Under the pieces are notes generated by a model, which was given only the letters and a program-made list of their open reading frames with translations, did no database searches and was not told the origin of the DNA. A program made the position numbers and the translations under genes. Below are positions 6,598 to 24,000 of a stretch of 24,000 bases of DNA, in pieces. This DNA comes from Anaerolineales bacterium (GTDB lineage Bacteria; Chloroflexota; Anaerolineae; Anaerolineales; UBA4823): NCBI GenBank assembly GCA_016935755.1, contig JAFGQI010000076.1:22584-46583 (forward strand), in the 5' to 3' direction. Numbering within the stretch: the first letter of the stretch is position 1; each line of letters starts with the position of its first letter.

Positions 6598-7830
6598 ATG
6601 CCCGAGTTTCTTCAACTGCTGCCTCCAGGCGAAGCGCTGGAAATATTTCTCAGGGGTTTGACCCACCAGGTGGGAGCTGAGCTGGTGGATACAGCCGAGG
6701 CGCTGGGCCGGGTCACAGCGCAGGCGGTCCAAGCGCCGCACAATCTGCCCACCTTCTCTCGCTCAACCGTGGATGGGTATGCCGTCCGCGCGCAGGATAC
6801 CTATGGCGCCAGCGAGTCGCTCCCGGTTTACCTGCCGGTGGTGGGCGAGGTGTTGATGGGGGCAACTCCCCAGTTCAAACTGGCGGCTGCCCAGTGCGCG
6901 CTGATCCACACCGGAGGCATGCTGCCTGAAGGCGCTAACGCAGTGGTGATGCTGGAACAAACCCAGAGCACTCGTCCCGGTGAAATCGAAGTGCTGCGGG
7001 ATATGGCTGTTGGAGAAAATATCATCAAAGTGGGCGAGGATGTCAGGCAGGGAGAGGAAGTGTTCAAAGCTGGCCTGCGCCTCCGCCCGTCCGAGATTGG
7101 CGGGCTGATGGCGTTAGGTCTGACGCGTCTGCTGGCAGCCAGGCGGCCGCGGGTGGGCATCCTGTCCAGCGGCGATGAGGTTGTGCCACCCGATCAGGAC
7201 ATCTCCCTGGGGCAGGTGCGGGATGTCAACTCTTACAGTCTCAGCGCGCTGGTGGAAGCAAGCGGCGGCATCCCGGTGCGCTATGGCATCCTGCCTGACC
7301 ACGAATCGGCCTTACGAGAGGCGGCGGTCAGGGCGCTGGAGCAATGCGATATGGTGCTGATCACCGCTGGTTCATCTGCCAGCGCGCGCGATCTGACTTC
7401 GCAGGTGATTGAGGCATTGGGCCGCCCGGGGGTGCTGGTGCATGGCGTCAATATCCGACCGGGGAAACCAACGATCCTGGCAGTGTGTGAAGGCAAACCG
7501 GTCATTGGGCTGCCGGGCAATCCGGTCAGCGCCCTGGTGATTGCCCGTTTATTTGTCACCCCGGCCATTGAATGGCTGCTGGGAGTGAGGCAGCCCCGCC
7601 CGCAAGCGGTGGTCACGGCTCGTCTCAGCCTGAATATCCCCTCCCAATCCGGCCGCGAAGATTGGACGCCCGTCCGGCTGCTAGGCAATCCAGGCAGCTA
7701 TACCGCCGAGCCGGTTTTCGGTAAGAGCAATATGATTTTTATCCTGGCGAGGGCGGATGGATTGGTTAAAATTCCTGCTGCGGCGACGGGTTTGACCAGC
7801 GGAGATTTGGTGGAGGTGTATTTATTATGA
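6598..7830 (+). CDS. moeA: Molybdopterin molybdenumtransferase MoeA
   Basis: 410 aa carrying STVDGYAVRA, GGMLPEGANAVV, SSGDEVV, VRDVNSYSL, LITAGSSAS, RPGKP and GLPGNPVSA. Confidence 0.9.
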   Translation: MPEFLQLLPPGEALEIFLRGLTHQVGAELVDTAEALGRVTAQAVQAPHNLPTFSRSTVDGYAVRAQDTYGASESLPVYLPVVGEVLMGATPQFKLAAAQCALIHTGGMLPEGANAVVMLEQTQSTRPGEIEVLRDMAVGENIIKVGEDVRQGEEVFKAGLRLRPSEIGGLMALGLTRLLAARRPRVGILSSGDEVVPPDQDISLGQVRDVNSYSLSALVEASGGIPVRYGILPDHESALREAAVRALEQCDMVLITAGSSASARDLTSQVIEALGRPGVLVHGVNIRPGKPTILAVCEGKPVIGLPGNPVSALVIARLFVTPAIEWLLGVRQPRPQAVVTARLSLNIPSQSGREDWTPVRLLGNPGSYTAEPVFGKSNMIFILARADGLVKIPAAATGLTSGDLVEVYLL

Positions 7831-8237
7831 GCCGGGTGACGGATTTACCCCTGGTGATCTTGCCGGATCGTATGGCGATCTGCCGGCTGCCGGTGGACTC
7901 AGGACAACCGGATTGGGCCAAGCCGGGAGATTTACTGGCCATGGTCTGGACGCGCGATGAACTCAGCCTGGTGTGTCAGGAACGCCTGGTGCCTCCAGAG
8001 GTGCGCGCCGAGCGCGGCTGGCGCCTGCTGCAGGTGCAGGGCAGCCTGGATTTTTCCCTCGTGGGCGTTCTGGCTTCGATTGCGGTGCCCCTCGCCAGAG
8101 CCGGGGTGAGTATATTTGCCATATCAACTTTCGATACCGACTATATCCTGGTCAAAGCCGACTCACTGGAGCGGGCGGTGGATGCGCTTACCCAGGCGGG
8201 TTTCCTGGTGCTGAACTATGTCAATCTATCTACATGA
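7827..8237 (+). CDS. ACT-domain protein (ACT_7-like small-molecule-binding domain)
   Basis: 136 aa. The segment LQVQGSLDFSLVGVLASIAVPLARAGVSIFAISTFDTDYILVKADSLERAV is a typical C-terminal ACT fold signature. ATGA start/stop overlap with moeA. Confidence 0.75.
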   Translation: MSRVTDLPLVILPDRMAICRLPVDSGQPDWAKPGDLLAMVWTRDELSLVCQERLVPPEVRAERGWRLLQVQGSLDFSLVGVLASIAVPLARAGVSIFAISTFDTDYILVKADSLERAVDALTQAGFLVLNYVNLST

Positions 8238-10230
8238 TATCCCTCTGCAAGATGCGCAAACCAGGCTGAAAGCTGCTCTCCAGCAGGTTGGACGCTGGGG
8301 GCTGCTTGGCAGTGAGCAGATTCCTCTGGATGAACAGGCGGTAGGGCGCGTGCTGGCGGAGCCAGTCTGGGCAAAAATCTCCTCGCCGCATTATCACGCC
8401 TCGGCCATGGATGGTTTTGCGCTGCGTTCCCGCCTGACCGATGACGCAATGCCCAACGAACCGGTCACGCTGGTTTGTCAGCCAGATTCAGCCATCTATG
8501 TGGATACTGGTGATCCCTTGCCCGCATGGGCGGATGCGGTCATCCAGATCGAGCAGGTAGAATCATTGGATCAGACCGGCCAGCCGGCCGAAAATCTTCG
8601 CCGCCCGTATGCCATCCGCCTGCGCGCTGCAGTGACCCCCTGGCGCAACGTCCGCCCAATGGGTGAGGATATGGTGGCTACGCAGCTGGTGCTGCCAGCC
8701 GGGCACACATTGCGTCCAGTCGACCTGGGGGCAATCGCTGCCTGTGGGCATCAGATGGCGCAGGTGGCGCTGCGACCGCGTATCGCCATCCTGCCGACCG
8801 GCACAGAACTGGTGGCGGTTGGACAGCCTGTCCAGGCGGGGGATATTATCGAATACAACTCGATCGTGCTGGCGGCGCAGGTGAACCAGTGGGGAGGTCA
8901 GGCCACGCGCTATGCGATTATCCCGGATGACTATGAGATGATTTGCCGGCGCGTGGCGGAAGCAGCCTTGAGCCACGACCTGGTGCTGCTCAATGCTGGC
9001 TCATCGGCGGGTTCGGAAGATTTCTCTGCCAGGGTGGTGGAAAATCTGGGTGAACTGCTGGTGCATGGCGTAGCCGTGCGCCCGGGGCATCCTGTCATCC
9101 TGGGAATGCTGGAGATAGAACGCATTTATCATGCTTTCCCAGAACTGAGGCCGGGATCAGCCACGCCGTGCAGCAGCATTCCAATCATCGGTGTGCCAGG
9201 GTATCCGGTGTCGGCGGCGCTGACAGGCGAAATCTTTGTCGAACCCTTGCTTTCTGTCTGGTTGGGGCGCCCGGCGTATAAACCTGCTCAGGTAAATGCG
9301 ACCCTGACTCGTAAAGTCACCTCCCCAGCAGGAGATGACGATTACTTGCGGGTAGCCGTCGGTCGGGTAGGGGAAAAACTCCTGGCCGCGCCCCTTTCGC
9401 GCGGATCCGGGGTAATCACCTCGCTGGTGCGCGCCGATGGCATCGTCATCATCCCACATGGATCGCAGGGCTTACCAGCCGGGGCGGAGGTGCCGGTGCG
9501 CCTGTACCGCTCACCCGCTGACCTGGAAAATACGATCGTTGCGATCGGATCACATGATATGTGCCTGGATCTGCTGGCGCAATTCCTGGCAGGCCGCGGC
9601 CGCCGTCTGGCTTCTGCCAATGTCGGCAGTCAGGGAGGGCTGGTGGCTTTGCAGCGCGGCGAGGCGCACCTGGCCGGCTCACATCTGCTGGATCCTGAGA
9701 CGGGCGAGTACAACCTGTCCTACATCCGCCAGTATCTGCGCGGGCGCGCGGTGAAGGTAGTCGGGTTCGTTGAACGCCAGCAGGGCTTGTTGGTAAAACG
9801 CGGCAACCCGCGTGGCATCCATTCCTGGCAGGATCTGGCTCGCCCGGAGCTTACATTCGTGAACCGACAGCGCGGGGCAGGCACGCGTGTGCTGTTGGAT
9901 TATCATTTATGTCAGTTAGGGATTGCGCCAGAAGCAATTCGAGGCTACAATCAGGAGGAATTTACACACCTGGCTGTGGCTGCTGCTGTTGCTTCTAACC
10001 GGGCAGATTGCGGCCTTGGGATTGCCGCTGCTGCACAGGCATTGGACCTGGACTTCTTGCCTCTGTTCCAGGAACATTATGAGCTGGTGATTCCTGCAGA
10101 GTTCTACCATGACCGCTTGCTGGAACCGCTGCTGGAAACCCTGGGAGAAGCTGCTTTTCGCCGGGCAGTTGTGGGACTTCCTGGCTACGATGTGGAGCGG
10201 ATGGGTGATTTGATTGCTGAGGTAAGCTAG
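8218..10230 (+). CDS. MoeA paralogue fused to a C-terminal periplasmic-binding-protein-like (PBP_like, ModA/LysR-substrate-type) domain
   Basis: 670 aa. The N-terminal roughly 440 aa carry MoeA blocks (ASAMDGFALRS, LPTGTELV, EYNSIVLA, LLNAGSSAGSED, RPGHP, GVPGYPVSA). The C-terminal roughly 220 aa (IGSHDMCLDLL...GGLVALQRGEAHLAGSHLLDPETGEYN...VNRQRGAGTRVLLD) look like the PBP-like domain seen on some MoeA proteins. The ATG overlaps the ACT gene by 20 nt. Confidence 0.85.
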   Translation: MSIYLHDIPLQDAQTRLKAALQQVGRWGLLGSEQIPLDEQAVGRVLAEPVWAKISSPHYHASAMDGFALRSRLTDDAMPNEPVTLVCQPDSAIYVDTGDPLPAWADAVIQIEQVESLDQTGQPAENLRRPYAIRLRAAVTPWRNVRPMGEDMVATQLVLPAGHTLRPVDLGAIAACGHQMAQVALRPRIAILPTGTELVAVGQPVQAGDIIEYNSIVLAAQVNQWGGQATRYAIIPDDYEMICRRVAEAALSHDLVLLNAGSSAGSEDFSARVVENLGELLVHGVAVRPGHPVILGMLEIERIYHAFPELRPGSATPCSSIPIIGVPGYPVSAALTGEIFVEPLLSVWLGRPAYKPAQVNATLTRKVTSPAGDDDYLRVAVGRVGEKLLAAPLSRGSGVITSLVRADGIVIIPHGSQGLPAGAEVPVRLYRSPADLENTIVAIGSHDMCLDLLAQFLAGRGRRLASANVGSQGGLVALQRGEAHLAGSHLLDPETGEYNLSYIRQYLRGRAVKVVGFVERQQGLLVKRGNPRGIHSWQDLARPELTFVNRQRGAGTRVLLDYHLCQLGIAPEAIRGYNQEEFTHLAVAAAVASNRADCGLGIAAAAQALDLDFLPLFQEHYELVIPAEFYHDRLLEPLLETLGEAAFRRAVVGLPGYDVERMGDLIAEVS

Positions 10231-12074: not shown

Positions 12075-13442
12075 TCAGGGATTTACAGCCCCAAACTCTT
12101 GTAGCAGCCGGGTCATGTGCTGGGCGTGTTTGAGATACAGGTCCAGGCGCAAGTTTTCGTTGGGAGCGTGAGCCAGGGTGCCAGGATAACCGGCTCCAGC
12201 CGTGACCACCGGCAGTTTCAGGTTGTGAATGAAGGGATAACTCGGCCCGGAGCCGCCGACCATTGGTACGAGCTGCATTGGCTGCCCGTAGATGGGGGCG
12301 GCAGTGCGAACGGTCAAGGCTACAAACGGGTCATCTGGATCGGTGCGGGCGGGAGCTTCGCCCCCCAGATAGGTGATCTGGATATCCGAGAAGCCCTCCT
12401 GATCGAGATGCTGGCGCAGCTGTTTCAGCACCTGCTCTGGGGTCTGGTCAGGGACAAGGCGAAAATCCACCTTGGCCGATGCGCGTGCGGGCAGGACGGT
12501 TTTTGACCCCGGCCCTTGATATCCAGACGTCAGACCGCAGATCGTACAGGTGGGTTCAAAGACTTCCGCCAGGTTCAATTCCACGCCGCCAGTCAGCCCC
12601 TTAAGAAAATGGGACAGGCCGTAGCGGGTTTTGTATTCATCTGCCACTTCGGGCAGCGCTTTCATTAACTCGATATCACGTGCGCTGGGCGGCCTGACCG
12701 AATCATAAAACCCAGGCAGGCGGATATGCTCGTCAGTCCCTTTCAGGCTGTTCAGAGCCCAAACCAGGCGCCAGGCTGCGTTGGGGAAGATTGAACCGCC
12801 CAGACCAGAATGGGCATCGGTCGAAGCGGTTTCTACGCTCAATTCGACATAACAGATGCCGCGCATGCCAAGATATTGCATCGGCACCTCGCGATGGTCA
12901 ACGCCGCCGAATTCCCATAAGCATGCCTCCGCCGCCAGCAGCTCCTGATTTTGCACGACGAAATCGAACAGGTTCTCACTGCTGGTCTCTTCTTCCCCCT
13001 CAATGATGAACTTGATCCGGCAGGGCAGCTCACCATAGACCTGCAGCAGGGCGTCGATGGCGAACAGCCGGGCGACAAACTGGCCCTTATCGTCGCTTAC
13101 CCCACGTCCGTACAATTTCCCATCTCTGATGGCTGGTTCAAACGGTGGGCTGTCCCATAGTTCCAGCGGCTCGGGGGGCTGTACATCATAATGGTTGTAA
13201 ATCAGCAGCGTATTTTGGCTGCGCCCTGCTCGCTCAGCGAATACTACCGGGGCTCCGGGGGTGGGCATAATCCGCACCTCGAAATTGCGCTGGCGCAGCA
13301 TGTCGGCTACCAGTTCGCCGCATTCCTTCAGCCCCCAGTTTTGCGCCCCAACACTGGGCTGGGCCACCAGCCGGGAGAGTTCGGCGATGCTTTGATCTAA
13401 ATTTTCTTCCAGGTACTGATCGATTTTTGAGAAGTCAGTCAT
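12075..13442 (-). CDS. M20-family metallopeptidase / dipeptidase (ArgE/DapE/CPG2 family)
   Basis: 455 aa carrying LLIYNHYDVQPP, WDSPPFEP and DGKLYGRGVSDDKG (metal and catalytic motifs), plus IIEGEEE. GGAGG SD. Confidence 0.88.
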   Translation of the reverse strand: MTDFSKIDQYLEENLDQSIAELSRLVAQPSVGAQNWGLKECGELVADMLRQRNFEVRIMPTPGAPVVFAERAGRSQNTLLIYNHYDVQPPEPLELWDSPPFEPAIRDGKLYGRGVSDDKGQFVARLFAIDALLQVYGELPCRIKFIIEGEEETSSENLFDFVVQNQELLAAEACLWEFGGVDHREVPMQYLGMRGICYVELSVETASTDAHSGLGGSIFPNAAWRLVWALNSLKGTDEHIRLPGFYDSVRPPSARDIELMKALPEVADEYKTRYGLSHFLKGLTGGVELNLAEVFEPTCTICGLTSGYQGPGSKTVLPARASAKVDFRLVPDQTPEQVLKQLRQHLDQEGFSDIQITYLGGEAPARTDPDDPFVALTVRTAAPIYGQPMQLVPMVGGSGPSYPFIHNLKLPVVTAGAGYPGTLAHAPNENLRLDLYLKHAQHMTRLLQEFGAVNP

Positions 13443-13475
13443 GGCGCCTCCAGGTCATGCATAGATTATTTTGAG

Positions 13476-14027
13476 CTACCACTTGAACAGAGCTGGTAGG
13501 GAAAGACTGCCCAGATAGGCGAAGATGAGCATATTCAGAAATTTACCCGCGGCGGCGAATAGCAGAAAACGCCAGATGGGGATGCGCAGCACCCCCGCGG
13601 CAATCCCGGCCATGTCAAAAACCGGGTTGGGGATGCAGGCCAGGGCGAAGATAGCCAGGTCGCTGAAACGCCGGTTTTTTTCTAACCAGTTGCGCAGCCG
13701 TTCGTAGCGTTCCATGTTCTCTACCACAGCCTGTCCGCTGAATCCAGCCAGATAGCCGGATAGCTCTCCTACCGCCGCTCCCACACCGGCAGCTAACGCC
13801 ACCAAGATAGGGTTCAGCACCCCGCCCATTGCAAAAACGACCAGGTTGCCGGGCAGAGGCAGCAGCACGGTGGCATTGACCAACACGGAAAAGATGAAAA
13901 TGCCGGGATAGCCATAGGCAGCCAGCTCCTGCGCCCGATCGCGATATACCAGGATGAGGATTGTGATCCCCAGCACCAGAATCAGGGCCAGGATTCGCAG
14001 CAGAGTCAGGCGCGTTTTTGGCTGCAT
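13476..14027 (-). CDS. DedA/VTT-domain (YqaA-like) membrane protein
   Basis: 183 aa, polytopic. GYPGIFIFSVLVNATVLLPLPGNLVVFAMGG and ELSGYLAG match VTT/SNARE-associated-domain proteins. Confidence 0.75.
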   Translation of the reverse strand: MQPKTRLTLLRILALILVLGITILILVYRDRAQELAAYGYPGIFIFSVLVNATVLLPLPGNLVVFAMGGVLNPILVALAAGVGAAVGELSGYLAGFSGQAVVENMERYERLRNWLEKNRRFSDLAIFALACIPNPVFDMAGIAAGVLRIPIWRFLLFAAAGKFLNMLIFAYLGSLSLPALFKW

Positions 14028-14068
14028 GAAGGTCAGATTCGATAACGACAGGCGTATTTTAGGGCAGC

Positions 14069-14617
14069 TTATTCTTCCAGGATCGTGATGGATTTGAGCT
14101 GGACAGCCGGAGCCTCCCGGCGCATGGGGTCGCGCGGTGGGATCGAAAGCAGCACATCCAAACCCTTGACCACCTGTCCAAACACACTGTGTTTGTTATC
14201 CAGCCAGGGCGTGGGGACATGGGTGATGAAGAACTGCGAACCGTTCGTGTTCGGGCCTGCATTTGCCATCGAGAGAACGCCCGGTTTGTCGTGCCGCAGT
14301 TGGGGATGGAACTCGTCGGCAAAGGAATAGCCCGGTCCACCGCGGCCAGTGCCAGTCGGATCGCCAGCCTGGGCCATGAAGTCGGCAATCACGCGGTGGA
14401 AGATGGTGCTGTCATAAAAACCCTGGCGGGCGAGAAAGACAAAGTTATTGACCGTGTTTGGCACTTTATTTGAGTAAAGTTGGATCGAAATATCCCCTTT
14501 ATCGGTGTGCAGCACGGCGGTGTAGGTTTTCTGTGGGTCGATCGCCATTTTCGGAGGGGTAGACCATTGTTGAGCAGGCATGATAAGGTATCCTTTCGGT
14601 GATTTCGGATCGATCAT
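14069..14617 (-). CDS. ppiB: Cyclophilin-type peptidyl-prolyl cis-trans isomerase
   Basis: Carries [31 protein letters not shown] and [38 protein letters not shown]. The start is ambiguous: the in-frame ATG at 14581 (MPAQQW...) has an AAGGA SD about 9 nt upstream, whereas 14617 has none. Confidence 0.88.
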
Positions 14618-14649
14618 TCAGGGTGGCTGGAGATCGTCCGTGAGTGAAA

Positions 14650-15303
14650 TTATGCTGATGGAGCCTGGGGGATTTCCCCGCGCAGAAGGGCTTCCAGGCG
14701 AGCGACCACCATCTCCATGGCGACCGCGTTCAGCCCTCCTTCAGGAATAATCACATCTGCGTATCGTTTGGATGGTTCGACGAACTCCAGATGCATGGGG
14801 CGCACGGTCGCCAGGTACTGGTGCACAACGTGTTCGGTGGTGCGGCCGCGCTCGTTGATATCTCGGTCTAAACGGCGGATGAAGCGAATATCGCTGTCGG
14901 TGTCCACAAAAACTTTCACATCCAGCAGCTTTCGCAGCGCCGCATCGGCGAAGATCAAGATGCCTTCCACCATGATGACCGGCTGAGGATCGATCCGGCA
15001 GGTCTGGCTGGTGCGGGTATGCGCCTTGAAATCATAAATCGGCAAATCCACGGGCTGGTTGTTTTTCAGCTGGTTAATATGAGCGATGAGCAAATCTGTG
15101 TCCAATGAATTGGGATGGTCGAAGTTTATCGCCAGGCGTTCATTGGGGGGTAAGTCGCTCAAATCTTTATAGTAGGCGTCGTGGGGCAGGTAGGCGATGC
15201 GATCGGCGCCAATCTTTTCCAGAATCAGGTTCGCCAGGGTGGTTTTCCCCGAGCCTGATCCTCCGGCGATGCCGATGACAACAGGGGTTGCATGAATAGG
15301 CAT
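14650..15303 (-). CDS. udk: Uridine kinase
   Basis: Carries VVIGIAGGSGSGKTTLA (P-loop), NFDHPNSLD, YDFKAHTR, VEGILIF and VFVDTDSDIRFIRRLDRDINERGRT. I trimmed the track ORF (which ends at 15405) to ATG 15303, because the longer version runs into the tRNA gene and adds a non-homologous N-terminus. Confidence 0.9.
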   Translation of the reverse strand: MPIHATPVVIGIAGGSGSGKTTLANLILEKIGADRIAYLPHDAYYKDLSDLPPNERLAINFDHPNSLDTDLLIAHINQLKNNQPVDLPIYDFKAHTRTSQTCRIDPQPVIMVEGILIFADAALRKLLDVKVFVDTDSDIRFIRRLDRDINERGRTTEHVVHQYLATVRPMHLEFVEPSKRYADVIIPEGGLNAVAMEMVVARLEALLRGEIPQAPSA

Positions 15304-15309
15304 AATCGA

Positions 15310-15315
15310 ATTATA
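15310..15315 (-). promoter_or_regulatory. Perfect TATAAT -10 hexamer placed for a leaderless udk transcript
   Basis: The minus strand reads CAGTATAATTCGATTATG. The hexamer ends 6 nt before the A of the ATG, with no SD. The -35 element is poor. Confidence 0.4.
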
Positions 15316-15364
15316 CTGGAAGATAGGTACATCTTGAGGTTGAAATCGAGTGCAAATGAGAAGG

Positions 15365-15396
15365 AAAACGGTTTGCCTCCCCCCAAGATGAAACCG
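15365..15396 (-). terminator. Weak candidate terminator after tRNA-Thr
   Basis: The minus strand has CGGTTT and AAACCG (6-bp stem, 16-nt loop) followed by TTTTCCTTCTC. Confidence 0.25.
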
Positions 15397-15399
15397 AAG

Positions 15400-15472
15400 A
15401 GCCACCGAGGAGAATCGAACTCCTGACCTGGCGTTTACGAAACGTCTGCTCTGCCGGCTGAGCTACGGTGGC
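15400..15472 (-). tRNA. tRNA-Thr (anticodon CGU)
   Basis: The 73-nt minus-strand sequence GCCACCG-TA-GCTC-AGCCGGCA-GAGC-A-GACGT-TTCGTAA-ACGCC-AGGTC-AGGAG-TTCGATT-CTCCT-CGGTGGC-T folds as a cloverleaf. It has a 7-bp acceptor stem, perfect D and T stems, a TTCGATT T-loop and one A-C mismatch in the anticodon stem. CCA is not encoded. Confidence 0.87.
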
Positions 15473-15520
15473 ATAAAGGAAAAAATCTTTGGATATGTGC
15501 CAGAATAAGCACAGGGCGAC

Positions 15521-15549
15521 ATTATACAAGGGAAACCCTGGAAAGGCAA
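15521..15549 (-). promoter_or_regulatory. Sigma-70-type promoter for tRNA-Thr
   Basis: The minus strand reads TTGCCT (15549-15544), a 17-nt spacer, then TATAAT (15526-15521). The predicted start is about 40 nt upstream of the mature tRNA 5' end. Confidence 0.5.
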
Positions 15550-15579
15550 GGCCAAATCCATTGATCAGTGGAGGCTAGA

Positions 15580-16803
15580 ATGCGTGTGGCGATGTTATCG
15601 TATCATACCTGTCCGATAGCTGCCCTGGGGGGCAAGGATACGGGAGGAATGAATGTGTATGTGCGCGAACTGACCCGCCATCTGGGACAGCTAAACGTTC
15701 AGGTGGATGTTTTTACGCGCTCCCAGGACGAGCACGTGCCCCACGTTTTGCATGATTTGGGCTATGGCAACCGGGTGGTGCATGTGCCTGCTGGCCCAGA
15801 GGTGCCCCTGCCCAAGGAAACCCTGGCTGGTTACCTGCCAGATTTTGTCCGAGGGATCGAAGAGTTTGCTGTCAGCAAAGGACTGCACTATGACTTGATT
15901 CACAGCCATTACTGGATGTCGGGGATCGCGGCGGGAGAGTTGAAAAAGAAATGGCAGGCGCCAGTCGTGCACATGTTCCATACGCTTGGGATCATGAAGC
16001 AGCGTGTTGCTCGGGATGCTGCTGAGGTCGAGGGGGAGTATCGGTTATTGGGCGAGCGGCGTGTGCTTGAATTGGCGGATCGCGTCGTCGCGGCGACTCC
16101 AGCGGAGCTGGCTCAACTGCAGTGGTTATACCAGGCGAACACCAGCAAGGTGGTGATCATCCCGCCTGGGGTGGATATCAGCCATTTCTACCCCATCCCG
16201 GCAGATGAAGCAAAGGAGTATATCGGCGTAGCGCCTTGTGAGAGGGTCTTGCTGTATGTCGGTCGCATCGAACCGTTGAAAGGCATTGATACCTTGATCC
16301 AGGCGATTGCCATCATGCGAGAGCAGGGAGTAGTCGTATGCCTGTCGTTGATCGGGGGTGGGGCAGATAGCGGCGGGCCGGAGAACAAGGAGCAAATCCG
16401 CCTGCAGGAAATGCGCCATCAGGCTGGCCTTACAGGGATGGTAGCCTTTCTGGGCAAGCGTGGGCAGGATACTTTACCTTATTATTATTCAGCCGCGGAA
16501 GCAGTTGTTGTGCCTTCTCACTATGAATCATTTGGCATGGTCGCTTTGGAGGCCATGGCTTGCGGCGCACCTGTAGTCGCCTCGCAGGTGGGTGGGCTGG
16601 CGTTTTTGGTGAAGGATGGTGTGACTGGTTTCACCGTGCCAGTGGATGATCCTCAAGCGTTGGCAGATACGCTCATCCGCCTTTTCCAGGATCCGGAGCT
16701 GCGCAGCCGGTTGGGCCGCCAGGCTGCTCTGGCAGCCAGGGAGTATGCCTGGGAGAACATTGCCGCCCGGATGAGAGACTTGTATAACGAAGTTGCCCGC
16801 TAA
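15580..16803 (+). CDS. GT4-family glycosyltransferase, MshA-like (D-inositol-3-phosphate glycosyltransferase-like)
   Basis: The N-terminus VAMLSYHTCPIAALGGKDTGGMNVYVRELTRHLG resembles the MshA signature. The C-terminal GT-B block is VVPSHYESFGMVALEAMACGAPVVAS. I prefer ATG 15580 (GGAGG SD 5 nt upstream) over the track's GTG 15568. Confidence 0.85.
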   Translation: MRVAMLSYHTCPIAALGGKDTGGMNVYVRELTRHLGQLNVQVDVFTRSQDEHVPHVLHDLGYGNRVVHVPAGPEVPLPKETLAGYLPDFVRGIEEFAVSKGLHYDLIHSHYWMSGIAAGELKKKWQAPVVHMFHTLGIMKQRVARDAAEVEGEYRLLGERRVLELADRVVAATPAELAQLQWLYQANTSKVVIIPPGVDISHFYPIPADEAKEYIGVAPCERVLLYVGRIEPLKGIDTLIQAIAIMREQGVVVCLSLIGGGADSGGPENKEQIRLQEMRHQAGLTGMVAFLGKRGQDTLPYYYSAAEAVVVPSHYESFGMVALEAMACGAPVVASQVGGLAFLVKDGVTGFTVPVDDPQALADTLIRLFQDPELRSRLGRQAALAAREYAWENIAARMRDLYNEVAR

Positions 16804-17936
16804 TCGTGCGGCTGCCAGCCATCGGTTGGCAGTCCAGCTGGGCGCAGCCAGCTCAAAAACCCCCCGGTTGAAGTTTTGGAGGGCGGTTTTTTTTCTAATC
16901 CCACCAGCCCCAGGCTGACGACTAATAAGATTGCCCCACCCCACTGCGCCGCAGTGAACCGCTCTCCAAGCCACAGGTAAGCAAAGAACACGGTCACCAG
17001 CAGTTCGCTCAGGCCGAGCAGGGCTGTTTGCATCCCGCCCAGGTGCTTCACGCCTGTGAACAGGGTGAGGCGGGAAAGAAAGGTGACCATTGTCAGGCCA
17101 AGCACAGGCCAGATAGGCAGTTGGGTAGAGGTAGAACCGGCTGTGAGTGTGCCAGGCGTAACCATCTGGCCCAGATTAAATGAACCCGAAAAGATATAGG
17201 TCGGCACGACCACCATACTCATGGCAAACAGCGTATAAAGGGTCACTGTGGGGGGCGGCATGTCCAACAGCACGCGCTGGTTGATCGGCAGGTGGAGCGC
17301 ATAGAGCGCGGCGGAGATAAGCATTTCCACAATGCCGATGATATAGGCAGTCTGATCGGGGCCGGCTGAGTTCTGTTCGGCGCTGATGCGGCCCATGGCA
17401 AGCAGCACGATTGCTGGCAGCGCCAGGCTTAAACGAATCATCGTCAGGCGGGTGGTGGGTTGGTGATCCAGAGCCAACCAGAGCAGCAAGAACAGTGGAT
17501 AGAGCGAATACAGCAGCTGTCCAACTCCCGCGCCTATGTTGCTCAGAGCAGAGTAATAGAATAAGGATCCCAAACCATTGATCCAACCGGCCAGCAGACA
17601 GCCGAGCAAACCAGCGGGATAGATGTACAGGAAAGGGCGATAAAAGAAAAACATCAACGCGAGCAAGAGCAGACTTGCCAGTGCAGTGCGCCAGGCGACC
17701 ACCGCCAGAGGGCTGAGCCCAAGCAGGATGGCCTGGCGACCGAATACAGGCGCTAACCCCAGGAAGAATGCCGAAGCCAGAGCCGCTAAGATGCCCGTTC
17801 GCCTCGCCTTGTCTATTGGCTTCCGTTCTGAGACGGTTTTGCTGTGGCGAGGAGCTTCTTTTGCTCCGGGGGGCGATTCTGTCATGGCAGGCGGATCGCC
17901 CTCGAGGGGTGGATGCTGCTCTGGGAGCGCTGACAT
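16800..17936 (-). CDS. EamA/DMT-superfamily transporter with hydrophilic N- and C-terminal extensions
   Basis: 378 aa, about 10 TM helices in two EamA-like halves (GILAALASAFFLGLAPVFGRQAI...; ...LGERFTAAQWGGAILLVVSLGLV). The ATG is 2 nt after the upstream gene's TAA, with an AGGA SD. Its stop overlaps the convergent GT4 stop. Confidence 0.85.
   Translation of the reverse strand: MSALPEQHPPLEGDPPAMTESPPGAKEAPRHSKTVSERKPIDKARRTGILAALASAFFLGLAPVFGRQAILLGLSPLAVVAWRTALASLLLLALMFFFYRPFLYIYPAGLLGCLLAGWINGLGSLFYYSALSNIGAGVGQLLYSLYPLFLLLWLALDHQPTTRLTMIRLSLALPAIVLLAMGRISAEQNSAGPDQTAYIIGIVEMLISAALYALHLPINQRVLLDMPPPTVTLYTLFAMSMVVVPTYIFSGSFNLGQMVTPGTLTAGSTSTQLPIWPVLGLTMVTFLSRLTLFTGVKHLGGMQTALLGLSELLVTVFFAYLWLGERFTAAQWGGAILLVVSLGLVGLEKKPPSKTSTGGFLSWLRPAGLPTDGWQPHD
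16855..16894. terminator. Weak bidirectional-terminator-like element (A5-C6 ... GGAGGG-CGG-T8) inside the EamA 3' coding tail
   Basis: CCCCCC (16860-16865) can pair with GGAGGG (16878-16883) with one mismatch. An A5 run lies upstream and a T8 run downstream. The element sits 52 nt after the GT4 stop. Confidence 0.3.
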
Positions 17937-17938
17937 GG

Positions 17939-19858
17939 TTAATCCTGCATAGATGGATTGGCTTCCTGCTCACCGGCTCCGCCAGTTAGCTGGCGGACTT
18001 CTTCTAACAAATCATCGCTGAGGAACTGCCCCTTTTGCATCAGGGTATCAATCTGTCCGCTCAAGCGCTCCTTTTCACGCGAGGTTAGTTCCTTGGCGGT
18101 GACAACAATGACAGGTATCGATGCTGTGTGTGGGTTGGCTTTAAGAGCATCCAGAACGGTAAACCCATCCATTTCGGGCATCATCAGATCCAGCAGAATG
18201 ACATCGGGCAGCTGGTCTAAATACTGCTCACGCGTCATCTGTACACCTGGCCTGTGTTCTGACACCATCTCCAGCGCTTCGCTGCCGCTGGCGGCTTCCA
18301 GGATGGTGTAGTTGCCCTGGGATTGCAGGATGCGCCGGATGAGGCGGCGTGCATGTTCGGTGTCATCCACGATCAGTACGCGGGGGGTGTGTTCCTGTCC
18401 GGGCAGCCCTGGGGTGACCCGGCTGAGCGCGGCCAGCAGTCCTTCCTGGTCTGGGCCAGCGGAGACGGCTGGGCGTTCTTCCGGTAAGGTTTCTGTTGGT
18501 CGTCCCGCCGCCGGTACAGGCGGCGCTTTTCTGCGTTCCTCCAGCTCGGAGGGAAGCACCACATTGCGCGCCCACCCCTCGCCCAGGATGCTCGTCTCGA
18601 TCGGCATCGTATGACCGGTGCAGTTCACCGCAATGACCTCGCTTGGTTTGATCACCCCGGCGCGGATCAATTTGATCAAACCGGCGAAAGCTACTGCTGC
18701 AGCCGGCTCGATCGAAATACCCTCCAGCTTGGCTACCAGGTGCATCGCCCGGAAGGCTTCTTCGTCTGTTACGCTTTCAAAAACGCCGCGCCTTGCCCCT
18801 TCCCTTTCTTCCCACGGGATAAGCTCTTCCAGTTGGGATTCATTATCCGCTGTTTGGGGAGCTGATACAACCCCACCGTTCAAGATGCGCTGGCGCAGCA
18901 GGGTATAAGTCCGTCCGGGATCGCCTGTTGCCAGTGTGGCAATGTGTGTGTTGGGTGAAGTAACAGGCTCGGCCACAGCTTTGTTTTCTCGCCAGGCGCG
19001 TACCATGGGCGAGCAGCCCTCCACCTGGATGATCGCCATGGCGGGTGTCTGCTTGCCTATCAGGCCTAACTGCTGCAGTTCGTAGAAACCCTTCTGGACT
19101 CCGAGCGGGCCCATTCCGCCACTGACCGATTGAATATACCAATCGGGGGAAACCCAGTTCAGCTGCTCGCAGATTTCGAAGGCGATGGTCTTCATCGCCT
19201 CAACAGAGGGGATAGAACGAGCGCCGCGTTCCAGATACAGGTTGCGCTGGCGGGCATATTCAGCAGCCAGTTTTTTCGTCTGATCATACGTGGCGGTGAC
19301 TTTGACTACCTGAGTTCCATAGATGGCTACTTCGCGCATTTTTTCGGCCGGCACCAGGCTGGTCAGAAACGCCCACAGCTTGATGCCTGCCCGGGCGGCA
19401 TAGGCGGCATAAGCAATGGCGACATTGCCCGTGGAGGCCAGCACGATCTCGGTGACGCCAGCCTCTTTCAAGGCCGCGATGTTCACGGCTGCCTGGCGGT
19501 CTTTGAACGAGCAGGTTGGTCCCTGGCGTTCATCTTTGATATACAGGTTGGGGCATCCCAACATCATGCCCAGGTTAGTCGCCCGGATGAGAGGGGTTGC
19601 CCCTTCGCCCATGTAAAGGGAAGGGTTGTTATCGTAGACCGGGAGCAGTTCGCCATAACGCCAAAGGTTCATGGGCCGCGCCGTGACCCGCTGGCGGAAA
19701 ATATCTCCTGTCAGGGCTGGTTGGAAGGTATAGCGCGCTTGCAGCCACTGGCCCTGGCAGGCTGGACAGGCGGTCAGCGTAGCTGAATAAACTGCCTGAT
19801 GCCCGCAGTCCAGGCATTCTACCCATATATTGCGGATTAGATCTTTTGCTTCAGGCAC
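17939..19858 (-). CDS. Threonine-synthase-like fold-type-II PLP enzyme with an N-terminal Cys4 ribbon and a C-terminal response-regulator receiver domain
   Basis: 639 aa. Ribbon is CLDCGH-X11-CPAC (aa 15-34). PLP lysine motif is PTCSFKDRQA (K119), with ASTGNVA, SVSGGMGPLG and NCTGHT. A Pro/Glu-rich linker spans about aa 440-490. The receiver spans aa 493-620. GTG start with an AGGAG SD 6 nt upstream. Confidence 0.85.
   Translation of the reverse strand: MPEAKDLIRNIWVECLDCGHQAVYSATLTACPACQGQWLQARYTFQPALTGDIFRQRVTARPMNLWRYGELLPVYDNNPSLYMGEGATPLIRATNLGMMLGCPNLYIKDERQGPTCSFKDRQAAVNIAALKEAGVTEIVLASTGNVAIAYAAYAARAGIKLWAFLTSLVPAEKMREVAIYGTQVVKVTATYDQTKKLAAEYARQRNLYLERGARSIPSVEAMKTIAFEICEQLNWVSPDWYIQSVSGGMGPLGVQKGFYELQQLGLIGKQTPAMAIIQVEGCSPMVRAWRENKAVAEPVTSPNTHIATLATGDPGRTYTLLRQRILNGGVVSAPQTADNESQLEELIPWEEREGARRGVFESVTDEEAFRAMHLVAKLEGISIEPAAAVAFAGLIKLIRAGVIKPSEVIAVNCTGHTMPIETSILGEGWARNVVLPSELEERRKAPPVPAAGRPTETLPEERPAVSAGPDQEGLLAALSRVTPGLPGQEHTPRVLIVDDTEHARRLIRRILQSQGNYTILEAASGSEALEMVSEHRPGVQMTREQYLDQLPDVILLDLMMPEMDGFTVLDALKANPHTASIPVIVVTAKELTSREKERLSGQIDTLMQKGQFLSDDLLEEVRQLTGGAGEQEANPSMQD
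17942..18382 (-). other. Receiver (REC) domain portion of the PLP-enzyme fusion
   Basis: RVLIVDDTEHARRL..., DVILLDLMMPEMDGFTV (phospho-acceptor Asp context), IPVIVVTAKE and DTLMQKGQF. It lies in the same frame as the PLP domain with no intervening stop. Confidence 0.8.
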
Positions 19859-19905
19859 AGATTCTCCTAGGTGGCATTTTATGCTATAGAATGGACGGCA
19901 GGATT

Positions 19906-19996: not shown

Positions 19997-22900
19997 TTAT
20001 GAGGCCGGTGGACGATGTGCACAGGCCATTACTGCCTGCACAAATTCTTCTTGCAGAATAGGCTTCATCAAGTAAGTTGTCGCTCCCGTGCTCAGAGCTT
20101 TATCTTTTTGATCCATAACTGAGGTGGCAATCACAGGTATCTGATGTGTTTGGGGATCGGAGCGGATGGTTTCAAGCACCTGCCAGCTATTGGGCATAGA
20201 AACATCCAGGGTGATGGCATAAGGCTGCAAGCCCTTGGCAATTTCGATCGCTTTTGGAACAGATTCGCTGGACAGGTCAGTGATGCCAACCACTGAGAAT
20301 TGAGGACTGTCTGGGCCGCGGTCAGAAGAGGAGAGATACCTGCGGTAAAGATCAATCACTTGTGAATCGATATCAATCGAAAGGATGGTAAGAACCCCGG
20401 CTTTCACAGAGGGAGCCGCTGTGGTCTGGTCCTCAACTGGCGCGCGCTTCTTATCTTTCTTGGCAGGCGGCTCCAGAACACTGGCAGGGGCTGTTTCTGG
20501 CAGGTTTTCAATTCCTGCTAGTTGGGTTGCACCTTCTGGGATGGGCAATGTGAAGTAGAAGGTGCTGCCCTGACCAACCTGGCTGTCTACTCCAATCTGT
20601 CCGCCATGCAGATGGATGAGATGAGAGGAGATTGAGAGGCCCAAACCAGATCCCCCGGTCTTGCGAGTGAGTGAACCATCTACCTGGGAGAAGGGTTGGA
20701 ACAGCTTGGATTGGTCTTCTAAGGTGATGCCTGGGCCAGTGTCGATCACTCGCACTACGATCGCCTGCAAGGAGGAAGGTGGGCCTTTCTTGGCTCTTCC
20801 GCTTAGCAGCTCGGGGTACATCTCCGCATCTACTGGTTCAATACTGGCTTTGACAGTGATCGTGCCTCGTTCGGTGAACTTGGCTGCATTTGAGAATAGA
20901 TTGATCAGCACCTGGCGGATCTTCATCGTATCGATCCGCACAAATGGCAGTTGAATGTCAACCTCGTTTTGCAGCGTGATCGGTTTATCTTTCACCAGGC
21001 CGATCATGGTTGACATCACACTCTTGATCAAGTCGCCCAGGCTCACGTTCTCCTCAAAGGCCAGCTCCATCTTACCAGCCTCAATCTTGGACAGGTCGAG
21101 AACATCATTGATCAGACCCAGCAGGTGTTGGCCGGAGTTGTAGATGGCTGATAGGTCTTGCTGCTGCAGGTCGGTTGTTGGGCCGTCGATGCCCTTCAGG
21201 ATCACGCGCGAGAAACCGATAATCGAGTTCAAGGGCGTGCGCAGCTCGTGGCTCATATTCGCCAGGAACTGGCTCTTCAGTCGGTCTGCCTCACGGATTT
21301 CTTCCACAGCGTGCTGGGCGATTTCATAAGCACGCGCGTTTTCTACCGCAACTGCAATCTGGTCAGCCAGAGTTTGCAGCACGGCGATATCATCGGGCGT
21401 GAAAGCATCCACCTGGGAGGCCTGTACATCCAACGCCCCAATCACCTCCAATTGAGTTGCTCCACCTCGTCCGATCTTGAGCGGGATGCCCAACTCTGCT
21501 TTCGTCAACGGCAGGAGTGGGTTGGGGCGGTGCACCAGGCGGGCCTGCTCCTGGCTGATATCGTTCAGCACCAACGACTGGCCATTCAGCGTCACCTGAC
21601 CGATCACGGAGCGGCTGCCCACTTCCAGGCTGTGGCCGCTGTTAATCATTTCTTCTCCCGCCTGTCCGGTGGAGGCGCGTACGATTGCCCGGCGTCCACT
21701 TTCATCAACCAGAAAGATGGATGCATGGTAGTAGCCGAAACGCTCAATCAAAAGGTTGACCAGGCGTGCAAGCAGGTCGTCCAACGCCAGGGTGCCAGAG
21801 CTATCACGGGCAATCTCGGCAGCCGTCTGCAGCTGGCTGGCGCGTCGTTGGGACTCATCCAGCAGGCGCAGGTTTTGGATGGCTACGGCGGCTTGCCCGG
21901 CCAGCGACATCAGCCGGCGAGTCTCTTGTTCAGGGAAGGAGGTCATCTGGCGAAATGCGCCAATTACCTGCCCGATCCACTGCCCAGCCACATTCAACGG
22001 CGCCAGGATCAGGCTCTTAGCGCCGATTTGGTCGATATACACAGCCCGGGCAGCCTCGTCCAGCCGGGCGTCGGTGGTTGTGTCCAGGATGGTGCTGGCC
22101 CGGTCAGGCTGCATGAGCAGTTCGGCATTCGTCCATTGGGATAGAGGATAACGATTGGGGTGATGCCCGGCCTCAGCACCAGTCCAACTCGCTACCGGAA
22201 ACATCCATTCTGGGCGGTCGGAGCGAGTCCAGGGCTGGTCGAATAAGTTAATCGTCACACTGGTGGCATGCACCTGGCCGAGCACCGTATGCTGGCGTAA
22301 GACGTTCAAGATGTCATCGTAGCTGGCTGCGGAGTTCAACCTGGCGCTGGCCTGGTAGAGCGCTTCAGTTTCGGCCAGGTTGATCTGCACCTGGGTGAAC
22401 AGGTCTTCGCGGGCGATGGTGTTCGCCAGAGCTGATGCGGCGGTTTGCAGAGCAGCGATTTCTTCAGCGCTCCAACGGCGTTCATAGTCATACTGTTCCA
22501 GGCCGATGCAGCCTGGCGCTTCCTGGCGACCGGGGATGGCAAACTGCAGCACTGCACGTGGGGCCTGGGCCGTTGAGGCCGGTTCACCAAGTGTGCCTGC
22601 CCTGCCAGGGGTTCTGCGTCCCAGCTGAGTTTTTTGCCAAAGGTTATCTCTACCGGTATCTGCCAGTCCGGTGAGTTCTTCGGGGAGTTCTCCCGCCAGG
22701 GCGGAAATATACCCTTTGCTGCTGAGCTTTTCCAGCCAGGGGCCGATCAGGCTGATGGGCAAGCGGCGCAGAGTGGGGTTGCCCAACTGAGCCGGCACTT
22801 CAGGTGCGCACCATTCGGAAATCAGCCGCCAGTAGGGGCCGCGCGCGTCCACCTGAGTTTCGAAGTAGTAGGTCCGGCTGGCCTGGGATGCCTCGCCCAG

Positions 22901-23638
22901 GGTGCGTAAAACATCCGCCAGGGCTGCTATGCCTCTTTCGGTCAGCGTTGTAACGGCCTGGGCGACGCTTTTCTGATATCGTTCGCTGACAGCCAGAGCC
23001 TGCAGGGCTGACTGGGTCTCCTGAAACAGACGGGCATTTTCCAACGCCAGACTGAGTTGATCAGTGACCTGTTCAACCAGCAGGATTTCATCCTCGCTCC
23101 AGGTGCGCTGGGGCGTATCATCCATGACTTCCAGGAGCAAGGCTGGCTGGGTCAGGGCATCTGCAAGCTGGCCGGAAGCGGACCCATCTGCTGACGCATC
23201 ACCTTTGGATGATGAACTCCATTCCAGCAGCGGTCGCGCATAAGCCAGAATGGCTTGATCTTCAGCGGTGGCGGGCAGGGCAATCGGCGTGCCGCGGCGT
23301 AAACTTTCCCAGCCAGCCGAGGTGAGTCCTGTGACGTTGCTGCCTATGGTGCTAAGCCCCTGTTCTTCTCCGGCTTCCCGGTCAGCAACGCTGATCGCTG
23401 CGCCTGGCTCAAGGATCGGCCGTTGCTTGGAAGTGATCTGCGTCGATGGAGTTGGCCCGGGCTGCCCATCACCAGGGATGGGGGGCTGGGGAGCGATGGG
23501 CGCAGCAGAGGTCGCCGGTTCCATTGGAGCAAGATCCGCTCCCAGGCTTGTGAACAACTGCTCGATGCGAGACTCGTTGGCAGGGCTTTTTACCGCTGGT
23601 GACTCAGTTTTTTCTTTTTTCTTCTTTACCGTTGGCAT
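19997..23638 (-). CDS. Soluble hybrid sensor histidine kinase: disordered N-terminus, four tandem GAF-like modules, HisKA, HATPase_c and a C-terminal receiver
   Basis: 1213 aa with no TM segment. H-box is SQFLANMSHELRTPLNSIIGF (H797). N-box is INLFSNAAKFT. G-boxes are DTGPGIT and GGSGLGLSIS. The receiver carries ILSIDIDSQ, AITLDVSMP (D1145), VIATSV and LMKP. Each GAF module ends in a recurring helix, for example TWSEDEILLVEQVTDQLSLALENARLFQ and FTPDDIAVLQTLADQIAVAVENARAYE. AGGAG SD. Confidence 0.9.
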   Translation of the reverse strand: MPTVKKKKEKTESPAVKSPANESRIEQLFTSLGADLAPMEPATSAAPIAPQPPIPGDGQPGPTPSTQITSKQRPILEPGAAISVADREAGEEQGLSTIGSNVTGLTSAGWESLRRGTPIALPATAEDQAILAYARPLLEWSSSSKGDASADGSASGQLADALTQPALLLEVMDDTPQRTWSEDEILLVEQVTDQLSLALENARLFQETQSALQALAVSERYQKSVAQAVTTLTERGIAALADVLRTLGEASQASRTYYFETQVDARGPYWRLISEWCAPEVPAQLGNPTLRRLPISLIGPWLEKLSSKGYISALAGELPEELTGLADTGRDNLWQKTQLGRRTPGRAGTLGEPASTAQAPRAVLQFAIPGRQEAPGCIGLEQYDYERRWSAEEIAALQTAASALANTIAREDLFTQVQINLAETEALYQASARLNSAASYDDILNVLRQHTVLGQVHATSVTINLFDQPWTRSDRPEWMFPVASWTGAEAGHHPNRYPLSQWTNAELLMQPDRASTILDTTTDARLDEAARAVYIDQIGAKSLILAPLNVAGQWIGQVIGAFRQMTSFPEQETRRLMSLAGQAAVAIQNLRLLDESQRRASQLQTAAEIARDSSGTLALDDLLARLVNLLIERFGYYHASIFLVDESGRRAIVRASTGQAGEEMINSGHSLEVGSRSVIGQVTLNGQSLVLNDISQEQARLVHRPNPLLPLTKAELGIPLKIGRGGATQLEVIGALDVQASQVDAFTPDDIAVLQTLADQIAVAVENARAYEIAQHAVEEIREADRLKSQFLANMSHELRTPLNSIIGFSRVILKGIDGPTTDLQQQDLSAIYNSGQHLLGLINDVLDLSKIEAGKMELAFEENVSLGDLIKSVMSTMIGLVKDKPITLQNEVDIQLPFVRIDTMKIRQVLINLFSNAAKFTERGTITVKASIEPVDAEMYPELLSGRAKKGPPSSLQAIVVRVIDTGPGITLEDQSKLFQPFSQVDGSLTRKTGGSGLGLSISSHLIHLHGGQIGVDSQVGQGSTFYFTLPIPEGATQLAGIENLPETAPASVLEPPAKKDKKRAPVEDQTTAAPSVKAGVLTILSIDIDSQVIDLYRRYLSSSDRGPDSPQFSVVGITDLSSESVPKAIEIAKGLQPYAITLDVSMPNSWQVLETIRSDPQTHQIPVIATSVMDQKDKALSTGATTYLMKPILQEEFVQAVMACAHRPPAS

Positions 23639-23657
23639 AGTAAATCAACTCCTACGC

Positions 23658-24000
23658 TCAGTAGGTGCGGGACTCGGGCAGGTGCATGGCAGTGGAACTC
23701 TGCTCTTGGGCTTCTTTGCCACTGGTGAACTGCATTTCTGGGTGGTGTGTCTTTGTCAGTGCGATCAATTCTTGAGCCAGGGCATCATATTGTAAGGCGC
23801 TGCGGCTGGGCGTTGAGCGTCTGGGGCTGCGGTAATGGGTGATTGGTTTGCCTTCGACGGCGCTCTCCCGCAGCCGGGTGTCGATTTCGATAATCGTTTG
23901 GAAGACGCCCTCGGCAAAAGCATGTCGAATTTGCTCATTGACCTGGCGGTGGATGCGGTTGCGCCTGTCAAACATGGTGACCAGGATACGATAGGTCAGG
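23658..24000 (-). CDS. ParA/MinD-family P-loop ATPase, C-terminal part only; the gene continues beyond the right edge
   Basis: The frame is open to the window edge (LTYRILVTMFDRRNRIHRQVNEQIRHAFAEGVFQTIIEIDTRLRESAVEGKPITHY...YDALAQELI). This matches the ParA/Soj C-terminal half (TMYD-R-N...V...IP.N.RL.EA...G.P). A roughly 30-aa non-conserved tail follows. The stop is 19 nt before the kinase ATG. Confidence 0.8.
   Translation of the reverse strand, partial: LTYRILVTMFDRRNRIHRQVNEQIRHAFAEGVFQTIIEIDTRLRESAVEGKPITHYRSPRRSTPSRSALQYDALAQELIALTKTHHPEMQFTSGKEAQEQSSTAMHLPESRTY

Follow-up and report, generated by a model that had tools for sequence, protein, structure and literature searches.

The stretch of DNA analysed here (the window) comprises 24,000 nt of contig JAFGQI010000076.1 from an Anaerolineales bacterium (positions 22,584 to 46,583; GenBank assembly GCA_016935755.1). 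Its reverse strand contains a single open reading frame (ORF) of 639 aa with GTG as the start codon, in which a Cys4 zinc ribbon and a pyridoxal 5'-phosphate (PLP) enzyme domain related to threonine synthase (ThrC) are joined in frame, through a linker, to the receiver domain (REC) of a response regulator. The protein, designated ThrC-REC here, is identical to GenBank MBN2548960.1, 'threonine synthase [Anaerolineales bacterium]', which is encoded on a 188.6-kb contig. The names given in GenBank and by JGI (threonine synthase) ignore the receiver. The gene lies between those for a hybrid histidine kinase and an EamA/DMT-family transporter (Table 1).

Table 1. Positions of the ThrC-REC gene, its parts and its neighbours in the window
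Feature	Position	Strand	Basis or remark
Whole ORF, 639 aa: zinc ribbon, ThrC-like PLP domain, linker and receiver	17939..19858	-	
Shine-Dalgarno-like AGGAG, 5 nt before the GTG	19864..19868	-	read directly
Cys4 zinc ribbon (C15, C18, C31, C34)	19748..19822	-	alignment, AlphaFold2
Fold-type-II PLP catalytic domain, ThrC family	18599..19678	-	PALP PF00291, E 1.6e-60
K119 codon, PLP Schiff-base lysine in SFKDRQ	19502..19504	-	aligns to K61 of T. thermophilus ThrC
Lineage-specific insert, residues 327-357 (31 aa), low-confidence loop	18788..18880	-	pLDDT ~54
Variable Pro/Glu-rich linker, predicted disordered	18446..18586	-	alignment, AlphaFold2
Conserved helix EGLLAALSRV before the receiver	18416..18445	-	alignment, AlphaFold2
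Receiver (REC) domain	17984..18385	-	PF00072, E 3e-19
D557 codon, predicted phospho-acceptor aspartate	18188..18190	-	kept in 235/235
EamA/DMT-family transporter; ATG 2 nt past the ThrC-REC stop	16800..17936	-	PF00892
Upstream hybrid histidine kinase, 1213 aa: GAFs, HisKA, HATPase_c, weak C-terminal REC	19997..23638	-	presumed phosphodonor
ParA/MinD-like ATPase, C-terminal 113 codons, cut by the window end	23658..23999	-	

The original prediction, made from the sequence alone, had described the four parts as a single ORF and had expected matches to both PALP (PF00291) and Response_reg (PF00072). All four parts are present, and both domains scored above the Pfam thresholds, PALP with 205 bits (cut-off 35) and Response_reg with 69.6 bits over residues 494-610 (cut-off 30.2). 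An AlphaFold2 model built on 120 homologues had a mean predicted local distance difference test score (pLDDT) of 81 and a predicted template modelling score (pTM) of 0.72, with the ribbon, the PLP domain and the receiver each modelled confidently.

The fusion was found to be widespread. All 120 of the best matches to the window protein, which are 534-626 aa long and share 58-66% identity with it, have both Pfam domains. Their sources are assemblies from NCBI, JGI, ENA and Logan, among them contigs of 3.05 and 3.65 Mb. Of the 120 best matches to P0123, the nearest relative that lacks the receiver, 108 also have both domains; these 108 further clusters represent a second fused clade, of about 548 aa, from Aggregatilineales and other Anaerolineae. 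In total about 230 independent protein clusters share the in-frame fusion, some on contigs of 2-3.7 Mb, and the fusion is thus not a product of assembly, a possibility that the original prediction had wished to see excluded. Every named source belongs to the Chloroflexota (Anaerolineales, Bellilinea, Anaerolinea, Ca. Villigracilis, Aggregatilineales and Thermoflexales). Clustering at 50% left seven fused representatives, three of which (P0124, P0126 and P0147, of about 710 aa) have two receiver domains after the PLP domain. A full-text literature search found no publication on a ThrC-receiver or PLP-receiver fusion, so the earlier view that the architecture is uncharacterised stood, while any impression of rarity did not, as the fusion is common within Anaerolineae. 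The fused copy at one locus (L021, 10441-12092), taken from Ca. Villigracilis vicinus as assembled from long reads, is split between several frames, and downstream of it no match to EamA was found. These breaks are probably a long-read assembly error rather than the mark of a pseudogene.

Residue conservation was counted over 235 fused proteins. The ribbon cysteines were kept in 223-232 of them, the remainder being N-terminal gaps, and the ribbon was modelled with a pLDDT of about 95. A match of residues 14-37 to the zinc-ribbon family DUF7129 in Pfam was weak and under the cut-off. In the PLP domain, K119 was present in every protein, and S142-T143-G144-N145, the Gly-rich loop S246-G253, T/S414 and E384-P385-A386 were invariant or nearly so. 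The domain therefore combines a profile match with the Schiff-base lysine, Gly-rich phosphate loop and Ser/Thr at PLP N1 by which fold-type-II PLP enzymes are recognised. An insert of roughly 35 aa had been put forward as a clue to the substrate. This did not hold up, as the insert (31 aa) is modelled with low confidence and is missing from most homologues in the alignment; being lineage-specific, it is uninformative on the substrate.

The receiver had been judged complete from its motifs. The profile match bore this out, as did the conservation of all active-site residues, namely the acidic pair D498/D499, D557, T587 and K609. D499, T587 and K609 were each kept in at least 229 of the 235 proteins. 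Loss of the PLP lysine or of the acceptor aspartate in orthologues was looked for, since it would have told against the original prediction, and neither was lost in any of the 235. The window receiver holds a lineage-specific insert of about 15 aa (RPGVQMTREQYLDQL). The long Pro/Glu-rich linker that had been described is present; its length is mostly peculiar to the lineage, with a variable part of 40 aa in the window protein and of 5-46 aa (median 15) across the family. Residues of about 424-470 were modelled with a pLDDT below 50. Between the linker and the receiver, a short helix that had gone unremarked was found to be near-invariant at E472, G473, L474, L475, A477 and L478 (family form EGLL(A/S)AL) and was modelled at residues 474-481. 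A confidently docked position of the receiver was looked for and not found, the models of both the window protein and a short-linker homologue (pTM 0.74) giving linkers with a pLDDT below 50 and a modest pTM.

Among proteins of solved structure, the closest relatives by sequence were the threonine synthases 2zsj (E 2.5e-41), 6cgq, 2d1f and 1uim. The closest folds were also ThrC, with a Foldseek TM-score of 0.83 (normalised to the target) and 28-30% identity, and next came plant ThrC, the cysteate synthase CapA2 and serine/threonine dehydratases. Four elements of the T. thermophilus enzyme were kept in the window protein: K61 (K119), S84-T85-G86-N87 (S142-T143-G144-N145), T317 (T414) and E287-P288-A289 (E384-P385-A386). 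Because these positions are retained, the sites for the cofactor and the alpha-carboxylate are intact.

Other ThrC motifs were replaced. N-S-x-N-(P/S)-x-R-x-E-G-Q-K-T, common to five solved ThrC from bacteria to plants, gave way to R211-G212-A-R214-S-I-P-S218-V-E-A-M-K-T, and this replacement is kept across the fused family. The sequence SVSGGMGPLG, noted earlier as differing from the GNAGN loop of threonine synthases, does align to GNAGN in four bacterial ThrC structures and to GNLGN in the plant enzyme, with S-G-G-M-G-P, one residue longer, in place of GN(A/L)GN. T88 of T. thermophilus ThrC, which follows S-T-G-N, corresponds to V146. We take T88, N154, S155, R160 and N188 of that enzyme to hold the substrate phosphate, although confirmation in the literature was not found; the alignment itself shows that the motifs are common to the solved ThrC. 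The fused family has conserved basic residues of its own, R/K211, R/K214 and R316, and an anionic distal group on the substrate is therefore still plausible.

With the NCBIfam ThrC model TIGR00260 (cut-off 167.1 bits), the window protein scored 171 and its relatives P0121 and P0124 scored 143 and 142, whereas canonical ThrC scored 336. With a further ThrC model, NF006050, the window protein was below the cut-off (245.8 versus 303). Cysteate synthase was ruled out as an identity, the score with TIGR03844 being 120.1 bits against a cut-off of 324.9. The threonine biosynthesis genes hom and thrB occur in none of 21 loci and never adjoin the fused gene there. Membership among the threonine synthases is not established, and two defining motifs fail in the sequence; a ThrC-type reaction is possible. 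The doubt voiced in the original prediction about O-phosphohomoserine as the substrate was reinforced, both by the replaced motifs and by the other family members that fall under the TIGR00260 cut-off.

A motif table and a rough neighbour-joining tree without support values were used to place the fused proteins among their relatives. All of the REC fusions fell in one clade, with three unfused proteins (P0123, P0398 and P0419) nested inside it. This clade lies within a wider group defined by an SGGxGP loop, and the group is apart both from canonical ThrC and from an unfused type of about 415 aa found at locus L019, which has the motifs RNTGFNPY..EGKKT and VSVGDGC. The L019 type is named threonine synthase by GenBank and JGI, scores 204-230 bits with TIGR00260, and is widespread in metagenome-assembled genomes (MAGs) of Anaerolineae, in ordinary housekeeping surroundings. 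P0123 clears both NCBI ThrC cut-offs and is found among housekeeping genes in a Gram-negative organism.

Some relatives carry other domains or none. P0169, P0188 and similar proteins (about 615 aa) consist of a zinc-ribbon ThrC-like part with the lysine kept and a C-terminal LeuA allosteric/dimerisation domain, and may be enzymes regulated by amino-acid feedback. In P0179, P0219 and seven similar representatives (about 470-500 aa) the lysine is replaced, giving SF-I/L/T/N-DRG in all nine. A PadR winged-helix domain was checked for and found in two of the nine, and the PadR-fused proteins look like transcription factors with a dead PLP-fold domain as the sensor. An unfused protein of the same loop class, P0134 (42% identical), lies at L091 (218-6140) in an operon-like row with an unknown 619-aa protein, a radical-SAM/SPASM enzyme, a TauE/SafE-type anion exporter and an iron alcohol dehydrogenase (Fe-ADH). 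This is not a threonine operon and may be a small biosynthetic cluster. Another unfused member of the SGGxGP group adjoins amino-acid transport genes.

The neighbours of the fused gene are conserved. Next to ThrC-REC, both the window and each of the 20 related loci (numbered L001 onwards) have a HisKA/HATPase_c kinase, and the position of the kinase gene in the window is conserved in 17 of 18 loci. A gene for an EamA protein is downstream in 19 of the 20 loci that reach far enough. In the window this protein matches PF00892 in two stretches (83.8 bits), as expected for two EamA repeats; no specific NCBIfam name was found for it, and no terminator-like site was seen between the ThrC-REC stop codon and the EamA start codon. 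The three genes occur together in the window, L001-L007, L009-L016 and L089. The order shared by 17 of 18 loci of the window clade is one to three (dCache/HAMP/MASE11)-GAF proteins, a ParA-like ATPase, a GAF kinase, a double-receiver segment of about 270 aa that stands as a separate protein or, as in the window, forms part of the kinase, then ThrC-REC and EamA. At L089 a dCache/GAF kinase of 2441 aa is followed by ThrC-REC and EamA. The module is minimal at L092 (hot-spring Anaerolineae) and L017 (Thermoflexales), where it consists of ThrC-REC, a REC-HisKA-HATPase kinase and EamA. Because other lineages keep only these, the kinase, the enzyme-receiver protein and the transporter make up the conserved core.

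On balance, we favour the interpretation that the gene product is a response regulator with a zinc-ribbon PLP enzyme of the ThrC family as its output, controlled by the kinase and coupled to the EamA transporter, with a reaction that is probably not that of ThrC. The domain make-up, the conservation of the catalytic and phospho-acceptor residues, the divergence of the ThrC substrate motifs and the synteny of kinase, enzyme and transporter were computed here; we infer which protein donates the phosphate, what phosphorylation does, which substrate is used and in which direction transport runs. Switching by phosphorylation is suggested by the anatomy of the protein together with the synteny. The adjacent HisKA-type kinase would phosphorylate D557 of the C-terminal receiver, and this would alter the activity of the PLP domain. 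Either dimerisation of the receivers may act on a dimeric enzyme, or an inhibitory contact made by the receiver may be released, as in CheB. These two routes are favoured because the linker is disordered and variable in length and no confident interface was modelled, and the EGLLAAL helix may take part in the control. The substrate would be a small amino acid bearing an anionic group at its distal end, undergoing beta/gamma elimination or replacement, and the reaction is probably not the conversion of O-phosphohomoserine to threonine. The co-transcribed EamA permease would bring the substrate in or take the product out.

Several observations weigh against this interpretation. The conserved basic residues of the family could still bind a phosphate ester such as O-phosphohomoserine. 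True ThrC activity of the clade is possible, since P0123 passes the ThrC cut-offs in a housekeeping context. A separate canonical ThrC was not shown for the fusion-carrying genomes, which were not scanned whole. No confident contact between receiver and enzyme was seen in the AlphaFold2 models, which came without predicted aligned error values. The window kinase is a hybrid, yet no Hpt domain was found in any protein of the cluster, and the route of phosphotransfer is therefore uncertain.

One alternative is that the protein is a genuine threonine synthase, a housekeeping or second copy placed under two-component control, with the EamA protein as an RhtA-type exporter of threonine or homoserine. 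E. coli RhtA, which exports threonine and homoserine, is itself an EamA/DMT-family protein. Each of the best solved relatives, whether ranked by sequence or by fold, is a threonine synthase, the window protein just clears TIGR00260, the names in GenBank and JGI agree, and P0123 has already been mentioned. We nevertheless consider this alternative unlikely. Motifs that are invariant in the five solved ThrC are replaced, other family members score under the cut-off, hom and thrB are not adjacent, the fused clade stands apart from canonical ThrC in the rough tree, and the Anaerolineae MAGs widely encode the separate, unfused L019-type protein.

A further alternative is that the PLP domain is a ligand sensor, binding an amino acid as an external aldimine in the manner of GabR/MocR, and that the protein is a node in the phosphorelay of the GAF/kinase cluster. 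Ligand binding would then modulate phosphorylation of the receiver or the binding of a partner. A C-terminal receiver is also found in hybrid relay proteins, the cluster includes several receivers and a hybrid kinase, some family members have two receivers, and the PadR fusions use ThrC-like domains as apparent sensor modules. However, the PadR fusions have lost the catalytic lysine, whereas all REC fusions keep it along with the residues that bind PLP and the carboxylate; the tightly coupled transporter gene downstream suits a metabolic enzyme, and the minimal three-gene modules conserve neither an Hpt domain nor a downstream output regulator. A sensor role thus seems improbable, a little more so than a genuine threonine synthase, and retention of the lysine without exception in the REC fusions, set against its loss in the PadR class, fits an active enzyme as the regulated output. 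An artefact of assembly or annotation (a lost stop codon or a frameshift) or a decaying pseudogene has a negligible chance of explaining the fusion and is refuted by the comparative data, since nothing in its support was found beyond the frameshift-like breaks of L021, and the same in-frame architecture recurs across NCBI, JGI, ENA and Logan data with both domains strongly conserved and, in the window, a proper ribosome-binding site at the start.

When known systems are compared, the class I ThrC (T. thermophilus 1UIM, A. aeolicus 2ZSJ, B. subtilis 6CGQ, M. tuberculosis 2D1F) share with the window protein the fold, the SFKDR lysine, the S-T-G-N loop, the Thr/Ser at PLP N1 and E-P-A. The window protein differs in its added N-terminal Cys4 ribbon and C-terminal receiver, its replacement for N-S-x-N-P-x-R-x-E-G-Q-K-T, its S-G-G-x-G-P loop, the Val in place of T88 and the lack of a hom/thrB context. 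Cysteate synthase (CapA2, 9K3C) is likewise a zinc-ribbon ThrC-like PLP enzyme and a structural neighbour, which itself uses a phospho-amino acid with a different nucleophile, but ThrC matches the window protein better, both by sequence and by fold. A regulatory domain appended to a PALP domain to tune its activity is also known from IlvA (ACT-like domains) and from A. thaliana ThrC, whose N-terminal extension mediates activation by S-adenosylmethionine (SAM). The regulators of those enzymes bind metabolites, whereas here a phosphorylation receiver is wired to a sensor kinase. The LeuA-fused relatives have an allosteric domain in the same C-terminal position as the receiver. In MocR/GabR and in the PadR-fused ThrC-like proteins a PLP-fold domain is also joined to a signalling or regulatory domain, but there the PLP domain is the sensor and the output is DNA binding, and the lysine that is absent from the PadR fusions is kept in the REC fusions.

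Outputs of two-component systems are usually transcription, second messengers or chemotaxis proteins, and response regulators with enzymatic outputs, such as CheB and PleD, are known. In CheB a receiver is followed by a flexible linker and a catalytic domain, and activity is set by phosphorylation of an aspartate by a neighbouring kinase. ThrC-REC similarly has a receiver linked flexibly to a catalytic domain in one polypeptide. It differs in that the enzyme is N-terminal and the receiver C-terminal, in that the enzyme is a PLP enzyme acting on small molecules rather than a hydrolase that modifies proteins, and in that no inhibitory interface was found in the models. As the output of a receiver, a PLP amino-acid enzyme that stays linked to a kinase and a DMT transporter throughout a bacterial class is a new form of this known type. 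If the receiver does gate the PLP enzyme, this would be post-translational, signal-dependent control of amino-acid chemistry, of which no studied case was found.

The family has many members, all of them from Anaerolineae and relatives. These filamentous bacteria abound in wastewater sludge, anammox reactors, sediments and hot springs. The strict linkage to the kinase and the transporter makes for a compact, testable three-gene system. The label 'threonine synthase' may mislead reconstructions of threonine biosynthesis in these organisms.

A more speculative extension, which we regard as improbable, is that the kinase, ThrC-REC and EamA form a signal-gated factory for a secreted molecule of the non-proteinogenic amino-acid type, acting in an autoinducer-like loop of signalling between cells in filamentous Anaerolineae. 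Phosphorylation would switch on a PLP-dependent replacement reaction and the permease would export the product, and the upstream dCache/GAF sensors present in most loci could sense the exported or a related molecule. If true, a PLP enzyme would for the first time be the output of a response regulator, and bacterial signal synthases would gain a new class.

The kinases themselves show further variation. In the minimal modules (L017, 2008-6036; L092, 9001-13197) the kinase is a soluble REC-HisKA-HATPase protein, and the kinase that presumably serves ThrC-REC is therefore itself under receiver control. The C-terminal receiver of the window kinase (19997-20440, minus strand) scored 29.9 bits, just below the Pfam cut-off. 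It corresponds to the separate double-receiver protein of about 270 aa found in most other loci (as at L001, 7131-7949), which indicates that this segment has been fused or split between lineages.

The genes upstream of ThrC-REC in the window (19997-24000, minus strand) and in L001-L016 belong to a larger conserved signalling cluster. Its one to three paralogous (dCache/HAMP/MASE11)-GAF proteins have no recognised kinase ATPase domain, and one of the GAF proteins matches MadS kinases weakly over a DHp-like region. The ParA-like fragment at the end of the window is 66% identical to the ParA-like protein of L001. Synteny extends further on the other side (window 12075-16803; L002-L004), with a GT4 glycosyltransferase, a PRK-family kinase, a cyclophilin, a VTT-domain protein and an M20 peptidase. 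The window also contains, on the plus strand, two genes for MoeA-type molybdopterin molybdenumtransferases (6598-7830 and 8218-10230), the second of which is fused to a C-terminal PBP_like domain (PF12727).

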